From contig SCQK01000016.1 in assembly GCA_004321885.1 (NCBI GenBank), forward strand, positions 1-26,422: DNA of 26,422 bases, in the 5' to 3' direction. The position numbers and the translations under genes were made by a program. This document shows positions 9,435-17,965 of this stretch, one piece after another; positions within the stretch are counted from its first letter, which is position 1; each line of letters starts with the position of its first letter. The notes under the pieces are model-generated. The model was not told the origin of the DNA. It did no database searches and saw only the letters and a program-made list of their open reading frames with translations. The DNA comes from Patescibacteria group bacterium. GTDB taxonomy: Bacteria; Patescibacteriota; Patescibacteriia; Magasanikbacterales; GWA2-37-8.

Positions 9435-9630
9435 ACAAAAACAATGCCTTTTTAGGGGCTGATAGTTAAAAAGATTATGCTACTCGCGCAGGGTCTGCAT
9501 GAAAATTGGCACCGCGTATAGCCCGCGTGGGGCGATACCGCAGTATTTTTGGCTTGTTACAGCCAAGAAACGACTTCCGCAACGCCCATTCGGCGAGCGG
9601 CAGTCAAACAGCGAAGATTGAAGTACCAAA

Positions 9631-9659
9631 ATGATACCTTATATTATAATATTTGTCAA
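9631..9659 (-). promoter_or_regulatory. candidate rpoB promoter with about 190-nt leader
   Basis: minus strand TTGACA - 17 nt - TATCAT; leader (9435-9625) contains several hairpins including TTGGCT-N6-AGCCAA motifs. Confidence 0.35.
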
Positions 9660-9783
9660 ATGTGAGAACGGTTTATTAAATTTGTCAAGGGGTGCGCGTT
9701 ACTCGGCTAATTTTAGCCAAAAAACTCCACTGAACCAAAACATTTCCAAAAAGTTATCCACAGGTTATCCGCACCTATATTTT

Positions 9784-10443
9784 TTAAATTTCCACTTCTG
9801 TTTCCGCACCTTCCCGGGCTTTCAATAAATCTTTGGGGGTAATGTGTTGAAAATTCCGCTCCGCGTCTTTGGCTGATTTTTTCAATTCTGTAGAGTATTC
9901 CTTGCTTCTGTCCGCGTGTTCTCCTTTACCAGCGGTCGGTTTTTTGCTCCCAACTGTCTTGCCTCCCTTTTTCCCACCTTCAATATCCATGTTTGGTATT
10001 TTATAAACAGGGAGGATTTCCACTGCCCCGTTGCTTCCATTAACAAATGCCACATCCATCCCTTGCTCAAGCAACAACTTTCTGATTCCTCTAATTTGAG
10101 CGGCGATTTGGTCTGGAGACAACTGCCTGCTCTCCGCGTCTTTTAACGTTTCACTCCAAGCTGTTCGCGTTTCCCTAATGCCTTTCTTAGCTCCCCTGTC
10201 ATAACCGGCATCATAAACCGCTTTCAGCTTCGCCTGTCCGGTTTTTTTCTCTAAATTCACTCCCACAAGTTCGCCGCCGGTAAAGGTAGTGGCGGCAAGA
10301 AGACCTGTCACAATGCCCTTTTTAACTTTACCGCTTTTTTTGTCCCCCCTTGATTCCGGATTAAATCCGCCGTTTTCTCGCCTCATAAAAAATAGATAAA
10401 AAATAATTGCTTGTATTGTATCAAATACGCTTGAAAAAAACAA
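9784..10443 (-). CDS. hypothetical protein, hydrophobic N-terminus then Lys/Gly-rich
   Basis: 219-aa ORF from TTG at 10443 (alternative ATG at 10386); no SD; N-terminal MFFSSVFDTIQAIIFYLFF looks like a membrane anchor; no recognisable domain. Confidence 0.45.
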   Translation of the reverse strand: MFFSSVFDTIQAIIFYLFFMRRENGGFNPESRGDKKSGKVKKGIVTGLLAATTFTGGELVGVNLEKKTGQAKLKAVYDAGYDRGAKKGIRETRTAWSETLKDAESRQLSPDQIAAQIRGIRKLLLEQGMDVAFVNGSNGAVEILPVYKIPNMDIEGGKKGGKTVGSKKPTAGKGEHADRSKEYSTELKKSAKDAERNFQHITPKDLLKAREGAETEVEI

Positions 10444-10639
10444 ACGGGTGCGATGGGTTGCTTAAACAACTATTCGGCTGTAAAATACTGACGTATTTTA
10501 AATAAAATTCTATGCCTCGAGAAACAGGCGGCTACGCACCGCCGGAAGCGCAAGCGATAACAAGCGGTAAAAAAATCAACAGTTTTTCCGCAAGCAAGCC
10601 AGAGACCGCGCCGAAGATTTTGTTGAAAGCGGCGGCTTA

Positions 10640-11122
10640 TTGGAAAAAATAAAAAGGGGAGACGCGGTTGCCTATATCGGCACTGGTTCCGGACACGTTC
10701 CGCAATTTATTGAGGAACAAACCGGAGCGAAGATATTTAAATTTGACCTGGCAAATTTGCGGACGCCTGATACAAAGGACAATAAATTCGCGCTGGCCAA
10801 TGCCCGCCATTTGCCGCTGGCCGATTCGTCGTTGGACGTGGTTTGCTTGTTTGATGTGTTGCACCACACGAAAAATCAAGAGCAAATTTTGAGTGAAGCG
10901 CGTCGGGTACTTCGGCCCGGTGGAAAATTATTACTGCTCGAAGATACTTTGCCCGAAGAAATCAACATCGCGAGCGGAGTTAAAAAAACTAAAGCGAAAG
11001 CTAAAAAATGGTTGGTAGGAAAAATGGATGATTTGTTTAATCTGCAATCAAAAAGCGTGAACCCGCATAATTTTATCATGCGATTTCTGACTGGGAAATT
11101 ATGCTTCACGAAGCTGGCTTGA
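10640..11122 (+). CDS. class I SAM-dependent methyltransferase (Methyltransf_11-like), apparently N-terminally short
   Basis: motif I VAYIGTGSGH at residues 9-18. The later block LPLADSSLDVVCLFDVLHH...RVLRPGGKLLLLE is typical of UbiE/type-11 MTases. Only a TTG start is available and nothing precedes motif I. Confidence 0.65.
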   Translation: MEKIKRGDAVAYIGTGSGHVPQFIEEQTGAKIFKFDLANLRTPDTKDNKFALANARHLPLADSSLDVVCLFDVLHHTKNQEQILSEARRVLRPGGKLLLLEDTLPEEINIASGVKKTKAKAKKWLVGKMDDLFNLQSKSVNPHNFIMRFLTGKLCFTKLA

Positions 11123-11269
11123 CTGTAAACGCGCGAGACACAAAAAGTTGGCAGTGGGGTATCAAAGATTTTATTTCCAAAGATAAAAAAGGGGCAAGGG
11201 CTAAACGGCCAAACAAACCGACAATGGGTTCGCCATTTCAAGCTACTCTTTTTGAAGGAATCAAACCTC

Positions 11270-11312
11270 TTGAAACAAAAAACATCCCGACTAAGTCGGG
11301 ATGTTTTATTAT
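11270..11312. terminator. bidirectional intrinsic terminator hairpin
   Basis: A-run, stem aacatcccg/cgggatgtt with loop actaagt, T-run. Confidence 0.4.
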
Positions 11313-11395
11313 TGAAGTTTCCTCGGCCTCCGCAGGCGTAAACAATTTTACGACTACGGAGGGTGGCCGAAGAACTACAGGCCGAGAAAGTGGCG

Positions 11396-11563
11396 CTACC
11401 AGACGCACCACCAGGGGCGCTTGAGCGGCAGGCTGGACGGCCGACCGCCAAGACAGATGTTCAGAACATACAACGCCCTGAACGCGAGGGGCAGGAAAAA
11501 CAACGCGAGGGCGGCCAGCGCTAGAAGCGCCAGCACGCCAAAAACCACAAAGAGCATTATCAT
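11396..11563 (-). CDS. possible small hydrophobic membrane peptide (55 aa)
   Basis: ATG at 11563; MIMLFVVFGVLALLALAALALFFLPLAFRALYVLNI...; preceded by TTGACA - 17 nt - TCTAAT on the minus strand; could be spurious. Confidence 0.2.
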   Translation of the reverse strand: MIMLFVVFGVLALLALAALALFFLPLAFRALYVLNICLGGRPSSLPLKRPWWCVW

Positions 11564-11607
11564 GCCTCAATTAGACCACAAAATCGCCCTTTTGTCAAGC
11601 CCTGTCC

Positions 11608-11636
11608 TTGACAAATTATTGTGTATAGTGTATAAT
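11608..11636 (+). promoter_or_regulatory. consensus sigma70 promoter of the wHTH-GHKL gene
   Basis: TTGACA(11608-13) - 17 nt - TATAAT(11631-36); ATG at 11657 gives a very short leader without SD. Confidence 0.7.
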
Positions 11637-11654
11637 ATATATACATTATACACT
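11627..11654 (+). promoter_or_regulatory. perfect 10-bp inverted repeat (operator-like) overlapping the -10 and the start of transcription
   Basis: AGTGTATAAT-atatatac-ATTATACACT, ending 2 nt before the ATG. Confidence 0.55.
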
Positions 11655-11656
11655 AT

Positions 11657-12424
11657 ATGAAAACGGCTACACAAAGCCAAATTCTAAATTACATACGCTC
11701 AAAAAAAGGTGCGGGGGCGCGTGAGATAATAAAACAAACCGGCAAGTACCCCACCGGTATTTTTCGCCATCTCAAAAATTTGCTGGCGGCAAACAAAATT
11801 TATAAGATTGGCAATATGCCCAGAGCGAGGTATTATGCCTTTGTTGAAAATACTAATATGACAAGCGAAAATCTTGCCAAGGCCATAAATTGGGCCGCGA
11901 CAGGTGATAGTAATTTAGTTACGCCCGATATTTTGTGCCAAACCCGCGATGTTTTCCAGGCGCGCGCGGATCATCTCGCCAAAGATTTAAAGCGAATAAT
12001 CAAAGACGATGACCTGATTTATCTTTTGATAGCCGCCGCTGATGAAATTGGAAACAATTCTTTTGATCATAATATTGGCCGCTGGCAGGATGTCCCCGGC
12101 GTGTTTTTTCAAATGAAAGAAGGTGAACGCGAAATGATTTTTGCCGACCGCGGACAAGGCGTGTTGGCCACCATCAGCGGAGTCAGACCTGATATTAAAG
12201 GTTCTGCCGACGCTTTGCGGGTAGCATTCACCGAGATTATTTCCGGCCGCGCGCCCGAGAAAAGAGGCAACGGACTTAAACTTGTGAAAAAAATAATCGT
12301 GGAAAATAATTTGTATCTAGAATTTTATAGCGGCAACGCCAAGGCAGTAATAGAAACGCCGGATTTAAGGATAGAAAAATCTGAAATAAACATAACAGGA
12401 ACTGTCGTGTATCTTAAATTTTAA
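11657..12424 (+). CDS. winged-helix DNA-binding domain fused to GHKL (HATPase_c) ATPase, RsbW/SpoIIAB-like
   Basis: N-terminal wHTH-like segment (QILNYIRSKKGAGAREIIKQTG...IFRHLKNLLAANKIYKIG); C-terminal N-box AADEIGNNSFDHN, G1 box ADRGQG, G2 box GNGLKLV. Confidence 0.75.
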   Translation: MKTATQSQILNYIRSKKGAGAREIIKQTGKYPTGIFRHLKNLLAANKIYKIGNMPRARYYAFVENTNMTSENLAKAINWAATGDSNLVTPDILCQTRDVFQARADHLAKDLKRIIKDDDLIYLLIAAADEIGNNSFDHNIGRWQDVPGVFFQMKEGEREMIFADRGQGVLATISGVRPDIKGSADALRVAFTEIISGRAPEKRGNGLKLVKKIIVENNLYLEFYSGNAKAVIETPDLRIEKSEINITGTVVYLKF

Positions 12425-12455
12425 CTGAATTCCCGGTCGCTTGAGGCGACTGTGA

Positions 12456-12743
12456 ATGACAACTTGTATGAAATTAGAGCTAAAAAAATTCGGCACAATG
12501 CTATCCTCGCGGCCAGCCGGTAAAGAAGCCTACCTTGGCGCTAAAGCATACACCCTGCCGAAAGAACCCAATGAAAAAATTGACGTGGATTTTTCTGGCG
12601 TGCAGGTACTCACCCCTTCCTGGGCCGATGAATTTATCACCCCGCTTTTGCGTGATTACCCCGGGCGGGTGATTTTGCTGCCCTCGGACAATGCCACGGT
12701 AAAAGCGGCGCTGGAGATTATCGGGGTGATAAAAGAAAAATAA
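12456..12743 (+). CDS. DUF4325 (STAS-like) domain protein
   Basis: 95 aa; KFGTMLSSRPAGKE...IDVDFSGVQVLTPSWADEFITPLL matches the DUF4325 STAS-like pattern (DFsGVe..ssSFaDElf); SD GAGG 10 nt upstream; 31 nt after the GHKL gene. Confidence 0.65.
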   Translation: MTTCMKLELKKFGTMLSSRPAGKEAYLGAKAYTLPKEPNEKIDVDFSGVQVLTPSWADEFITPLLRDYPGRVILLPSDNATVKAALEIIGVIKEK

Positions 12744-12753
12744 TTATCAACAC

Positions 12754-12781
12754 TTGACACTGTTTTGGTTTAAGCTACAAT
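12754..12781 (+). promoter_or_regulatory. near-consensus sigma70 promoter with no CDS downstream
   Basis: TTGACA - 16 nt - TACAAT. Confidence 0.55.
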
Positions 12782-12788
12782 AAAGTAT

Positions 12789-13010
12789 CGGATAATTTTT
12801 CTTCAATAACTTTCTCTGCACCGAGCTGCGCAAGAGTCGATGTCTTGACCGGATCGGATTTTTTGGAAACAATCTCTCTCCTCTCCTGAACTTACTTTTT
12901 AGTATGTTCGGAGAGCGTTTTCAAAATTCGGTTCGTAAGCTAAAACATGCGCCTCTTGCCGCAGCTCGGTGCAGAGAAAAAAAACAGCGCGCCGTTGGCG
13001 CGCCTTTTTT
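12789..13010 (+). ncRNA. candidate structured small RNA (unknown family; 6S-like closing stem)
   Basis: promoter at 12754-81, a 23/24-bp long-range stem (12814-12836 pairs with 12953-12976) enclosing about 115 nt with internal hairpins, then a rho-independent terminator; no ORF with SD in the interval. Confidence 0.3.
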
Positions 13011-13014
13011 GTTT
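12977..13014. terminator. bidirectional intrinsic terminator
   Basis: aaaaaaaaca - GCGCGCC gtt GGCGCGC - cttttttgttt. Confidence 0.65.
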
Positions 13015-13032
13015 ATGATATAATTATGAAAT

Positions 13033-15336
13033 ATGCCCCGACCTCGCATATACAGGCGAACGCACAAACCTCGCTTTAGTTTGAATCTCAATCCCGACAT
13101 CAGCCGCGGGCTGATTTCCATTTTCCTCTTTATCGTGGGCGGGGTATCGGCGCTGGCCTTTTTCCACCTGGCCGGCGTGGCCGGCGAATTCATAGATTCG
13201 CTTCTCGCCATTTCTTTCGGCCAGGTGCGCTATGTTTTTCCCATCATTCTCATCTTGGTCGGCATCCTCACCCTCAAAGATTTGCGTTACGAATACCGGC
13301 CCACGCACTGGCTGGGCTCCCTGCTTTTCTTTTTAAGCTTCAACGCCCTGGTGCATCTGCAAACACCTGTTTTGGAAATGAAAGACACTGCCCTGCAAGG
13401 CTATGGCGGCGGGCTGGTCGGGTTGGCGCTGGCCTGGCCCCTCGCGACCTATGTGGGCTATTGGGGCGGATTGGTTATTTTAATCGGTCTTGTGCTGGCC
13501 TCGGTAATTTTCCTGTTCAACACCTCGCTGGCGCGCATCGTGGGCCTGCATCGTCAATTTTTTTTCGTGCTGGGCTGGTTTGGCCGGCAGGTCATCGCTT
13601 TTTTCGCCCTTTTCAAAAGACCGGCCAGGGTAAAATTTAAAATCAACGGCGAATACGAAGAACAAAACGAGGAAGAAGCAGAAGACGAAACACAACCAGA
13701 CCCGGAAGATGAAAAAAGGATATTCAAACAGCGCGTCATTGCCAAGCAAGAAGAAAACGAGGTCATCTCGGCTGAAAAAGAAAAAACTGAAGAAAAAATG
13801 GAAGTGACTAGGCCCAAGCCGGTTATTCGCGATTTGCCGCCTCTGAACTTATTATATATTTCCAAAAGCAAACCCACTTCGGGCGACATAAAAAGCAACG
13901 CTGAGGTTATCCGCGACACTTTATTCAATTTCGGCATGGAAGTTGAGATGGGCGAGGTGCGCGTGGGTCCGACTGTTACGCAATATTCCCTTAAACCGGC
14001 CAAAGGCATCAAGCTGAATCGCATTACCGCCTTGAGTAATGACTTGGCTTTGGCTTTAGCCGCCCACCCCATTCGCATTGAGGCCCCTATCCCGGGCAAA
14101 TCACTGGTGGGCATTGAAGTGCCAAATCAAAAAGTGGCTATGGTTACTTTGCGCGAACTGCTGGAAAGCCAGGAATACAAAGCCAGCGATAACCCCATGA
14201 AAATCGCCTTAGGCAAAGACGTGGCCGGCAAGGTCTGGTTCGGCGACTTGCCCAAAATGCCCCACTTGCTCATTGCTGGCGCCACGGGCTCAGGCAAAAC
14301 TGTGTGCATCAACACCATTTTGCTTTCTTTACTTTACCAAAACACGGCCGAAACCCTGCGCCTTATAATGGTAGACCCGAAACGGGTGGAGCTCACCATG
14401 TACAACGGCATTCCGCACCTGCTCACGCCGGTAATCACCGACGCGGCTAAAACCGTAAACGCCTTAAAGTGGACCATCGGCGAAATGGACCGGCGCTTTA
14501 CGCTTTTATCCGAGAGCGGAAATCGCGATATCAATTCCTACAATCGCACGGCCGATGAGCCTTTGCCTCACATTATCTTTGCCATAGACGAGCTGGCCGA
14601 CCTGATGGCCATGGCCGCCAGCGACGTGGAAGCCGGCATCATCCGCATCGCCCAGATGGCGCGCGCCGTGGGCATCCACTTGCTGGTGGCCACCCAGCGC
14701 CCGAGCGTGGAAGTCATCACCGGCCTGATGAAAGCCAATATTCCGGCGCGCATAGCGTTTTCAGTGGCAAGCCTCATTGACTCGCGCACCATCCTTGACT
14801 GCCCGGGCGCGGAAAAATTGCTCGGCCGCGGCGACATGCTGTTTTTAACCGCCGAACTCACCAAGCCCAAACGTTTGCAGGGCGCCTTTGTGTCCGAAGA
14901 AGAAATGAAACGGGTGATAGACCACTTAAAAGGCGACGAGCCGCCGGTTTACGACGACTCCATTGTTTCCAAAAACGCCGAAGTTAAATTCGGAAGCACG
15001 GTAAACATGTTCGGCGGTCCGGGCGACGATGTTGACCCGCTTTTTGAAGACGCCAAAAAAATCGTGCTTGATTCGGGCAAAGCCAGCGCCTCGCTTTTGC
15101 AAAGATTTTTGAAACTGGGCTATGCCCGCGCCGCGCGCCTGCTTGACCAATTGGAAGAAGCTGGTATAGTAGGGCCGGCCGACGGCGCCAAACCGCGCGA
15201 GGTCTTTGGGGAATATTTTTCGGCCGAAAGCGAACTGCCTGAACCAATTGAGAAACCGGAACCGGACAAAGAACTGCCGGCCGAAGAACAAACCATGGAC
15301 GCGGGCGGGACCGTGTTTGACGAAGAAACAAAATAA
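13033..15336 (+). CDS. ftsK: DNA translocase FtsK/SpoIIIE
   Basis: 767 aa; N-terminal TM helices, Walker A GATGSGKT, VATQRPSVEVITG, C-terminal gamma wHTH (SASLLQRFLKLGYARAARLLDQLEEAGIVGP). Confidence 0.95.
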   Translation: MPRPRIYRRTHKPRFSLNLNPDISRGLISIFLFIVGGVSALAFFHLAGVAGEFIDSLLAISFGQVRYVFPIILILVGILTLKDLRYEYRPTHWLGSLLFFLSFNALVHLQTPVLEMKDTALQGYGGGLVGLALAWPLATYVGYWGGLVILIGLVLASVIFLFNTSLARIVGLHRQFFFVLGWFGRQVIAFFALFKRPARVKFKINGEYEEQNEEEAEDETQPDPEDEKRIFKQRVIAKQEENEVISAEKEKTEEKMEVTRPKPVIRDLPPLNLLYISKSKPTSGDIKSNAEVIRDTLFNFGMEVEMGEVRVGPTVTQYSLKPAKGIKLNRITALSNDLALALAAHPIRIEAPIPGKSLVGIEVPNQKVAMVTLRELLESQEYKASDNPMKIALGKDVAGKVWFGDLPKMPHLLIAGATGSGKTVCINTILLSLLYQNTAETLRLIMVDPKRVELTMYNGIPHLLTPVITDAAKTVNALKWTIGEMDRRFTLLSESGNRDINSYNRTADEPLPHIIFAIDELADLMAMAASDVEAGIIRIAQMARAVGIHLLVATQRPSVEVITGLMKANIPARIAFSVASLIDSRTILDCPGAEKLLGRGDMLFLTAELTKPKRLQGAFVSEEEMKRVIDHLKGDEPPVYDDSIVSKNAEVKFGSTVNMFGGPGDDVDPLFEDAKKIVLDSGKASASLLQRFLKLGYARAARLLDQLEEAGIVGPADGAKPREVFGEYFSAESELPEPIEKPEPDKELPAEEQTMDAGGTVFDEETK

Positions 15337-17693: not shown

Positions 17694-17767
17694 TCGGGCT
17701 GGTGGGACTCGGACCCACGACCTTCTGCTCCCAAAGCAGACGCGCTAGCCAACTGCGCTACAGCCCG
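17694..17767 (-). tRNA. tRNA-Pro (anticodon TGG)
   Basis: hand-folded cloverleaf: acceptor CGGGCTG/CAGCCCG, D-stem GCGC, anticodon stem TCTGC/GCAGA with loop TTTGGGA, T-arm GTGGG-TCCGAGT-CCCAC; no encoded CCA. Confidence 0.85.
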
Positions 17768-17802
17768 TTTTTGAACGCCCGCTGTTTAAAGCGGGCGTTA
17801 AG

Positions 17803-17874
17803 TGCCGAGGGCGAGGATCGAACTCGCGACGCATAGATTTTCAGTCTATCGCTCTACCACTGAGCTACCTCGGC
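17803..17874 (-). tRNA. tRNA-Phe (anticodon GAA)
   Basis: GCCGAGG-TA-GCTC-AGTGGTA-GAGC-G-ATAGA-CTGAAAA-TCTAT-GCGTC-GCGAG-TTCGATC-CTCGC-CCTCGGC-A. Confidence 0.85.
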
Positions 17875-17891
17875 TATTTTGTTTGGACCCG

Positions 17892-17965
17892 TGGACCCGG
17901 GCGGAGTCGAACCGCCGACCTCCACATTGCAAATGTGGCATTCTATCCAGCTGAACTACGGGCCC
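17892..17965 (-). tRNA. tRNA-Cys (anticodon GCA)
   Basis: GGGCCCG-TA-GTTC-AGCTGGATA-GAAT-G-CCACA-TTTGCAA-TGTGG-AGGTC-GGCGG-TTCGACT-CCGCC-CGGGTCC-A. Confidence 0.85.

Follow-up and report, generated by a model that had tools for sequence, protein, structure and literature searches.

A predicted rod-shaped small RNA with an invariant CU-repeat bulge, encoded near rpoB in Candidatus Magasanikbacteria

In an uncultured groundwater-type Candidatus Magasanikbacteria bacterium (Patescibacteria/CPR), a promoter and a terminator enclose a long inverted repeat in the region that separates rpoB, a gene of RNA polymerase, from the cell-division gene ftsK. The locus raises three questions: whether this unit is the gene of a non-coding RNA, to which kind of RNA the product belongs, and what it might do. 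Throughout, the window is the whole stretch of DNA that was analysed (26,422 nt). With a probability of about 0.9, we regard the element as a genuine non-coding RNA gene which is predicted to be transcribed independently and whose family is not contained in Rfam 15. The original prediction of a structured sRNA candidate that lacks an ORF and has a promoter and a terminator of its own is strongly supported by conservation, by covariation, by the conserved promoter and by terminators whose sequences are unrelated between species. The unit consists of the following parts, P1 to P7 being the helices of the fold:

12754-12781, plus strand: sigma-70 promoter; -35 box TTGACA (12754-12759), 16-nt spacer, -10 box TACAAT (12776-12781); 11 of 12 matches to the consensus.
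12787-12810, plus strand: unstructured 5' tail from the predicted start to the rod; length and sequence differ among homologues.
12811-12836, plus strand: 5' strand of the closing stem (P1-P3); pairs with 12953-12979 and holds the family-invariant CUGCG (12826-12830).
12838-12849, plus strand: conserved module CGAUGUCUUGAC (family consensus UGAUGUCUCAAC), comprising the 5' strand of P4, a loop of 3 nt in which C/A mismatches occur, and a helix of 3 bp.
12850-12869, plus strand: 5' strand of P5 (CGGAUCGGAUUU), then a 3x3 internal loop and P6, a weak helix of 4 bp; compensatory changes in 7 of 9 P5 pairs and in 3 of 4 P6 pairs.
12870-12880, plus strand: one-sided, single-stranded 5' bulge AAUCUCUCUCC with the family-invariant UCUCUC tract.
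12881-12916, plus strand: apical hairpin P7 with a pyrimidine-rich 5' strand and a purine-rich 3' strand; compensatory changes in 12 of 12 pairs.
12917-12952, plus strand: 3' strands of P6, P5 and P4; they contain the conserved UAAAACAUGC (12941-12950), in which a G is bulged.
12953-12979, plus strand: 3' strand of the closing stem (P3-P1); holds the invariant CGCAG (12960-12964).
12987-13014, plus strand: intrinsic terminator GCGCGCC-GUU-GGCGCGC plus U run; hairpin at 12987-13003, T run to 13010.

The TTGACA-16-TACAAT promoter named in the original prediction is present, and transcription is predicted to start at about 12785-12788, some 7 nt past it. Likewise, the strong bidirectional terminator described there was found at 12987-13010; it scores on both strands, an upstream A run making it bidirectional. 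In all 80 distinct loci, the stem is preceded on the plus strand by a promoter of the form TTGACA-16/17-TA(A/C)AAT with a score of 10/12 or more, whereas the best promoter-like site on the opposite flank and strand reached 6-9/12 in 78 of these loci and 10/12 in the other two. The distance from the end of the -10 box to the stem ranges from 10 to 47 nt among the 29 genome-derived loci, most of which possess a terminator-like hairpin directly after the rod, with a sequence unrelated between species. A cruder terminator scan scored a hairpin in 45 of the 80 distinct loci. The predicted transcript is a plus-strand RNA of about 190-225 nt with a rod core of 155-170 nt.

The fold itself says little about the direction of transcription. 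Mean folding energies are -60.4 kcal/mol for the plus and -62.0 kcal/mol for the minus strand, the latter being marginally better. G-U pairs and A/C mismatches occur 347 and 142 times, respectively, in the annotated pairs, an asymmetry that nearly vanishes once the two invariant C/A mismatches of the middle loop are counted. As the folding energies fail to separate the strands, the strand call rests on promoter and terminator. No conserved ORF was detected: reading frames that begin at the two conserved AUGs span 2-40 and 9-36 codons, and those of the minus strand are inconsistent. Because ORF length varies from both conserved AUGs, the element is not coding; a small-protein gene or type I toxin was rejected, ORF lengths not being conserved across homologues. 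In summary, the features of an independently transcribed, trans-encoded sRNA can be read from the sequence: an own promoter, an own terminator, conservation across species and no coding capacity.

The 227-nt unit folds with -103.6 kcal/mol, which corresponds to z = -11.4 relative to dinucleotide shuffles; none of 200 shuffles folded as well. Residues 12811-12979 (169 nt) form one continuous, imperfect and unbranched hairpin of about 58 bp, which we call the rod. Its base is a perfect 20-bp inverted repeat that pairs 12811-12830 with 12960-12979 and continues inward with CAAGAG/CUCUUG, where a single C is bulged. The closing stem had been described as 12814-12836 paired with 12953-12976, giving 23 bp with one bulge, and this is correct. 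P4 (12838-12843 with 12945-12951) includes the bulged G and is followed by a 3x3 loop, where C/A mismatches occur, and by a helix of 3 bp. The element ccggatcgg, formerly taken for a hairpin, is the 5' strand of helix P5 (12850-12861 with 12924-12935). The pairing of ctctcc with ggagag is real and constitutes the base of the apical hairpin P7. The notion that the stem encloses an internal bubble with separate hairpins had to be abandoned: the enclosed region is the interior part of one continuous hairpin, and the one-sided 5' bulge (12870-12880) is its sole large unpaired element, with 0-1 unpaired nucleotides opposite on the 3' side.

The element is known at 97 loci (83 distinct sequences) in Magasanikbacteria-type Patescibacteria, with one copy per contig. 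The relatives of FtsK found in species-representative genomes all stem from Candidatus Magasanikbacteria or Patescibacteria MAGs; some of these MAGs bear obviously wrong bin labels. A blastn comparison of the element with 80 FtsK-relative loci detected copies in most of them (68-76% identity); all of these share the strand of ftsK, which they precede in most cases by 100-350 nt, and every copy found in this way folds into the same rod. A covariance model, R1, was built from 26 sequences and gave exactly one strong plus-strand match (113-198 bits) in 29 of 81 sources. The minus-strand "echoes" of R1 scored far lower, as expected of a hairpin. A degenerate DNA pattern derived from the conserved blocks, which required UGCG, GAUG, UAA..CA..CA and CGCAG, retrieved 69 metagenome contigs; R1 confirmed all 69, each with one copy. 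Several of the contigs stem from the Hainich sites H43/H51. Note that the metagenome set was preselected for these blocks; therefore, their invariance is unbiased only in the 29 genome-derived sequences. In RNA-negative relatives, neither R1 with filters off nor a scan for the CU motif found divergent homologues. A blastn search of phage and plasmid collections gave no matches, and the retrieval pattern had 0 matches in viral contigs.

Do these homologues preserve the fold? Among the 29 genome-derived sequences, 90.2% of the alignment cells are paired and 38 of the 58 pairs show a compensatory change; for the 83 distinct sequences, the corresponding values are 91.0% and 42 of 58. Not one of 500 column shuffles of the 29 sequences reached any of these measures, and slid controls were 41-46% paired. 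The outcome was the same for the 83 sequences (0 of 500 shuffles; slid controls 40-47% paired, about 44%). Within the block of closing-stem helices, 19 of 30 pairs carry compensatory changes, and covariation is free in P1, P3, P5 and P7. P7 retains its pairing while its stem sequence and loop vary in sequence and length, and the apex is the most variable part of the rod.

Three blocks are invariant or nearly so: CUGCG/CGCAG in the lower stem, UGAUGUCUC.../...UAAAACAUGCA in the middle, and the single-stranded UCUCUC of the bulge. The middle helical module has the form UGAUGUCUC(AAC)/(U)AAAACAUGCA and contains a bulged G as well as C/A mismatches; its 5' part, CGAUGUCUUGAC, hardly varies among the 29 genome-derived sequences, a set obtained independently of the search pattern. 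The UCUCUC tract is at least 95% conserved although it lies outside the pattern used for metagenome retrieval, and its mean predicted unpaired probability is 0.96 over 82 distinct sequences. Judged from these alignments, selection preserves the pairing of the rod and the three sequence modules.

To which known family might such an RNA belong? No family of Rfam 15 matched, neither at gathering thresholds in the whole window nor at permissive thresholds in 12650-13100, nor in 17 further loci; the output of these scans consisted of terminator-driven noise and tRNAs only. The 6S family gave no match, and the remark that an SRP signature is missing was borne out, as no SRP family matched. Bacterial SRP RNA (4.5S; RF00169) is an abundant, protein-bound housekeeping RNA and, like the rod, a single long hairpin. 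It possesses a universally conserved apical domain IV with a GNRA-type tetraloop and symmetric and asymmetric loops. This domain is missing here, where conservation resides in the middle and lower rod and the apex varies most; together with the absence of a match in the window and in the 17 loci, SRP RNA was rejected. By-eye inspection of the conserved middle module for hammerhead-like CUGAUGA, K-turn and loop-E motifs revealed none that fits.

The situation resembles that of orphan structured ncRNA motifs such as raiA and the motif classes of intergenic surveys, with which the RNA shares discovery by comparison, strong covariation, a narrow lineage and a characteristic gene neighbourhood. HEARO and ROOL are further orphan motifs of comparable evidential status. 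In contrast to these motifs, which differ in sequence and fold, the present RNA is restricted to one CPR lineage and is an unusually simple, unbranched rod with a CU-repeat bulge. A search of the literature on 6S RNA, ncRNAs or regulatory RNAs in CPR, Patescibacteria or Magasanikbacteria returned nothing relevant. The RNA is a new family of a familiar kind, a bacterial structured sRNA that is possibly 6S-analogous, undescribed in Rfam 15 or in the literature searched.

The gene neighbourhood is the other source of information on function. In the window, rpoC and rpoB (minus strand), a methyltransferase, and an HTH protein with a DUF4325 protein are accompanied by ftsK, an HTH_25 (RodZ-like) protein, recA, mgtC and three tRNAs. 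The ftsK gene starts at 13033 and encodes a product of 767 residues with all four FtsK Pfam domains, and about 3.3 kb of extra genes separate rpoB from the sRNA gene. That the RNA gene sits directly upstream of ftsK, as originally noted, is true for the window; the conserved linkage, however, is to rpoB. Context was counted over 84 distinct RNA sequences or loci. A downstream ftsK on the same strand is found in 60 of them (median distance 125 nt), and in 7 of these 60 loci genes amounting to 0.7-3.6 kb are inserted between RNA and ftsK; in 53 of the 84, ftsK starts at most 700 nt downstream on the same strand. A divergent rpoB lies upstream in 51 of the 84 loci (median 737 nt). Eight further loci have no ftsK nearby; here, rpoB is co-directional and located 0.6-3.1 kb downstream of the RNA. 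The gene order in these eight loci is nrdJ, PduO-type adenosyltransferase, RNA, variable genes or tRNA, a 289-aa protein and rpoB, all of them co-directional.

For close relatives in which rpoB has moved away from ftsK, the covariance model run with filters off found no RNA at ftsK. As the RNA is absent at an ftsK that lacks rpoB and present near an rpoB that lacks ftsK, it tracks rpoB and not ftsK: rpoB is the sole persistent genomic partner of the RNA gene. The ancestral site of the gene is the divergent rpoB/ftsK spacer, which is also an insertion hot spot; the adjacency to rpoB could reflect inherited synteny plus one rearrangement. Folding of the rpoB/ftsK spacers of more distant lineages that keep this arrangement disclosed no comparable rod, and the RNA family is therefore confined to a subclade of Magasanikbacteria.

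What might the RNA do? Our proposal, which rests on sequence comparison and to which we assign slightly less than even odds, combines a stable, abundant and protein-bound RNA acting in trans with a CU tract as its working end and a link to RNA polymerase or its expression. The helical modules of invariant sequence, which are flanked by bulges, would be recognition sites of a protein; they look like such sites because the neighbouring helices covary freely. The rigid rod would present the invariant CU tract, which may pair with purine-rich (GA) nucleic acid or be held by a pyrimidine-specific partner. Since rpoB is the sole persistent genomic partner, a role tied to RNA polymerase or to the expression of rpoBC would be the favoured direction. 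CPR bacteria have tiny genomes and are almost entirely uncultured, and the RNA belongs to a lineage whose RNA biology is almost unexplored. It offers a concrete handle on gene regulation in these organisms, adjoining the RNA polymerase genes, and its simple architecture of a rigid rod with an invariant CU tract makes it directly testable. If it were associated with the polymerase, it would show that a 6S-like regulator can be built in a new way; otherwise, it would define a new RNP. In addition, the family can join RNA family databases and thereby improve the annotation of CPR genomes.

The main rival to the proposed trans-acting, protein-bound RNA is a function of the 6S type, in which the rod would bind sigma-70 RNA polymerase as a mimic of an open promoter. 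The CU tract, with P6 melted, would then be the 5' strand of the central bubble and the template for short product RNAs (GAGAGAGAU...), and the closing stem would be the downstream duplex. 6S RNAs keep their structure much more than their sequence. Given this poor sequence conservation, the lack of an Rfam 6S match (RF00013 and 6S-Flavo, RF01685; E <= 10 for 12650-13100, E <= 5 for the 17 additional loci) speaks against the idea without being decisive. Similarities to 6S RNA are the size and the rod of about 160-170 nt with closing stem, unpaired region and apical hairpin, the conserved single strand on the 5' side, and the strong stand-alone expression signals, among them a conserved promoter whose great strength would suit an abundant housekeeping RNA. 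The depth of conservation is typical of housekeeping RNAs as well. A connection to RNA polymerase is plausible, here through gene neighbourhood only, the gene remaining by rpoB in two different gene orders.

The details of the architecture agree less well. In 6S RNA, a rod of some 200 nt, two helical arms that are interrupted by small loops flank a central bubble; the 3' strand of the bubble carries a -10-like region and the apical arm a -35-like region (PMC8876501). In the present RNA, 10-13 unpaired nt about two-thirds up the rod form a one-sided bulge and not a two-sided central bubble; even if P6 and the 3x3 loop opened, at most about 7 nt would face it, so that the 3' bubble strand, the carrier of the -10-like element in 6S RNA (PMC8876501), is missing. 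The apical arm has only about 12 bp and is variable, hence it contains no -35-like region. The shortness of the arm is not disqualifying, because 6S-1 RNA of B. subtilis remains functional in vitro when truncated to short arms (PMC8876501). Synthesis of product RNAs on the 5' bubble strand of 6S RNA triggers the formation of a 3'-bubble hairpin or a "collapse helix" (PMC8876501). A candidate 9-bp hairpin in the released 3' strand of the major clade (GUUUUCUAA/UUAG..AAAAC) shows no covariation, with 75.1% of cells paired as against 75.7% in shuffles, and inspection of the sequence revealed no 3'-strand segment that is complementary to the CU tract and could form a collapse helix. Moreover, helices with strongly invariant sequence blocks are untypical of 6S RNA.

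From the original claim of a 6S-RNA style of architecture, the rod with a single-stranded region remains as a loose resemblance, whereas the one-sided bulge, the missing Rfam match and the candidate rearrangement hairpin without covariation speak against it. The architecture does not fit the canonical 6S open-promoter mimic, and we consider it rather unlikely that the rod binds the polymerase in this manner. The RNA is consequently not filed as a 6S RNA; owing to the tolerance of 6S-1 for short arms and to the linkage with rpoB, a 6S-analogous function, although doubtful, is retained as the main rival. A bolder version, again unlikely, sees the RNA as the RNA polymerase-associated regulator of this CPR lineage, a functional analogue of 6S RNA or Ms1 whose design has not been seen before, with a one-sided CU-repeat "half bubble" on a 50-bp rod. 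That its gene, kept by rpoB, may feed back on rpoBC, in the major clade possibly via a GA motif of the rpoB leader, is an equally speculative addition. A precedent for a polymerase-associated, rod-like RNA that standard 6S models miss (PMC9130861) is Ms1 of actinobacteria, a 6S-related RNA that binds the RNA polymerase core. Ms1 is larger and belongs to another lineage and another structure; it is likened to the present RNA as a precedent, and no homology is implied. If the reading as a polymerase regulator were true, Patescibacteria would have their first described regulator of this kind, and promoter-mimic RNAs would have to be defined more broadly.

The GA motif just mentioned is also an argument for a base-pairing sRNA that operates without a dedicated protein: the CU tract would be a seed for GA-rich mRNA sites, e.g. 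in the rpoBC leader, and the remainder a stabilising scaffold. The tract is the most conserved single-stranded segment and is predicted to be fully accessible. In the largest clade, the rpoB leader contains GAGAGAG(A) about 25 nt after the predicted start of a strong promoter, perfectly complementary to the tract, and the predicted duplex energies of -14 to -17 kcal/mol correspond to z values of about -3 to -4.5 relative to shuffled leaders. This motif is restricted to a single clade and thereby represents one evolutionary event; neither the window's own rpoB leader nor most other clades possess it (z about 0), and it is probably the 3' strand of a leader hairpin with a conserved ACUUCU. Flanks comprising 743 kb contain no other recurrent GAGAGAG site, and a pure scaffold would not retain invariant sequence in P2 and P4. 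As far as can be told from the leaders, the GA motif is a clade-specific lead and not a family-wide target. Nor were Shine-Dalgarno sequences found upstream of the orthologous rpoB, ftsK and recA starts; accordingly, there is nothing SD-like to mask at these genes, and an anti-SD-like role of the CU tract, which would act as an anti-SD mimic, is unlikely. On balance, we judge base pairing without a dedicated protein to be quite improbable.

If the RNA did not act in trans at all, the hairpin and the terminator might be a cis-acting leader or attenuator that controls read-through into ftsK, or might insulate the divergent rpoB and ftsK promoters. The short same-strand distance to ftsK in 53 of the 84 loci would suit such an arrangement, as would the overlap of the terminator with the -35 box of a promoter-like site of ftsK (12995-13024) in the window. 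Against it stand the eight loci without a nearby ftsK and the seven in which 0.7-3.6 kb of genes intervene; furthermore, a separate TATAAT precedes the ATG of ftsK by 6-9 nt in many loci. Rod and terminator do not overlap, the rod being very stable, no alternative antiterminator is evident, and the rod is conserved while the terminator sequences are unrelated between species. A regulatory leader of ftsK was excluded on the basis of the ftsK-less loci and the independent terminator, and we rate any cis-acting role as very improbable.

Practically negligible is the case for an element acting at the level of DNA, i.e. a MITE- or REP-like inverted repeat, a cruciform or a protein-binding palindrome instead of a functional RNA: the perfect 20-bp inverted repeat of the window, the roughly equal folding of both strands and the insertion hot spot would be in line with it, but the element occurs once per contig at a syntenic site, the repeat arm is unique in the window (0 chance matches expected), the inspected flanks show no apparent target-site duplication, phage, plasmid and viral matches are lacking, a DNA palindrome would have no use for a conserved one-sided bulge, and the conserved promoter points into the element in 80 of 80 loci. 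A MITE or other mobile repeat was excluded by copy number per contig, synteny and covariation, and the cis-acting and DNA-level explanations taken together still have only a small chance of being correct. The original prediction had named, as the competing outcome, a MITE-like repeat without compensatory changes; instead, the element is single-copy and syntenic, and at 70-76% identity across species compensatory changes are abundant and include many G-U pairs.

The invariant UCUCUC tract in the single-stranded bulge of the sRNA (bulge at 12870-12880) is the exact complement of a GAGAGAG(A) motif in the rpoB leader of the largest clade (L002, L010, L016, L003, L005, L077, L099, L116, L133 and others; these handles denote homologous loci in contigs of relatives). 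There the motif is located on the rpoB strand, about 230-390 nt 5' of the rpoB ATG, and for its duplex with the bulge an energy of -14 to -17 kcal/mol was predicted. The motif was found neither in the window nor in most of the other clades.

The distance from the rpoB promoter to the ATG, about 180-390 nt in the window and the homologous loci, points to a long rpoB leader. Tandem near-consensus promoters were identified 5' of rpoB in L002, L010, L016, L099 and others, as well as in the window:

9435-9730, minus strand: tandem near-consensus promoters of rpoB, CCTTGACAAA...TTTGACAAAT-17-TATCAT

Among the conserved blocks of the leader is TACTT..ACTTC, which directly follows the predicted rpoB transcription start. 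In addition, the palindrome TTTTGGCTAAnnTTAGCC(AAAA) is repeated, occurring both 5' of the rpoB promoters and within the leader; it has no match in Rfam and may represent an operator or a leader hairpin.

At the other end of the locus, a TATAAT-like -10 element lies just 6-9 nt 5' of the ftsK ATG in many loci. The ftsK mRNA is therefore probably translated as a leaderless or nearly leaderless message. In the window, the -35 element of this promoter falls within the sRNA terminator (site region 12995-13035), and the -10 element is positioned as follows:

13019-13024: -10 element of ftsK, TG-extended TATAAT, with the ATG at 13033

The starts of rpoB, ftsK, the rodZ-like gene and recA were compared between the window and about 20 loci per gene. 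For most of them no recognisable Shine-Dalgarno sequence was detected; A/U-rich stretches were found in its place. An exception is the rodZ-like gene of the window (15392), which is preceded by GGGGGAGGAACAGGAGGGGG.

In the window, rpoB and the sRNA are separated by about 3 kb of additional genes:

9784-12743: region containing a gene for a 219-aa protein without Pfam match, a gene for a 160-aa SAM methyltransferase, a 107-aa ORF, and a gene pair whose products are a wHTH protein (255 aa) and a STAS-like DUF4325 protein (95 aa)

These genes are missing at the equivalent site in most relatives, the HTH/DUF4325 pair occurs at other places in L127 and L140, and in L004 DUF4325 adjoins ftsK. Taken together, these findings suggest that the pair is a mobile two-gene cassette and that the rpoB-ftsK spacer is a hot spot for insertions.

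In the second gene order, which lacks ftsK, a conserved gene pair precedes the sRNA by about 70 nt (L143, L149, L136, L086, L092, L091, L144, L087). Judged by N-terminal sequences only, the pair is read as encoding a ribonucleotide reductase of class II type together with a cobalamin adenosyltransferase of PduO type. Several of these loci contain a tRNA of about 82 nt close to the sRNA; in L102 and L147 it is located downstream of the sRNA on the same strand. The window itself possesses a tRNA cluster:

17694-17965, minus strand: three tRNA genes, downstream of mgtC

Many MAGs with a clearly Magasanikbacteria-type locus (L002, L005, L006 and others) are listed in public records as "uncultured Gammaproteobacteria", "Candidatus Udaeobacter" or "Methylomirabilis"; these labels are probably due to mislabelled bins or placeholder taxonomy.
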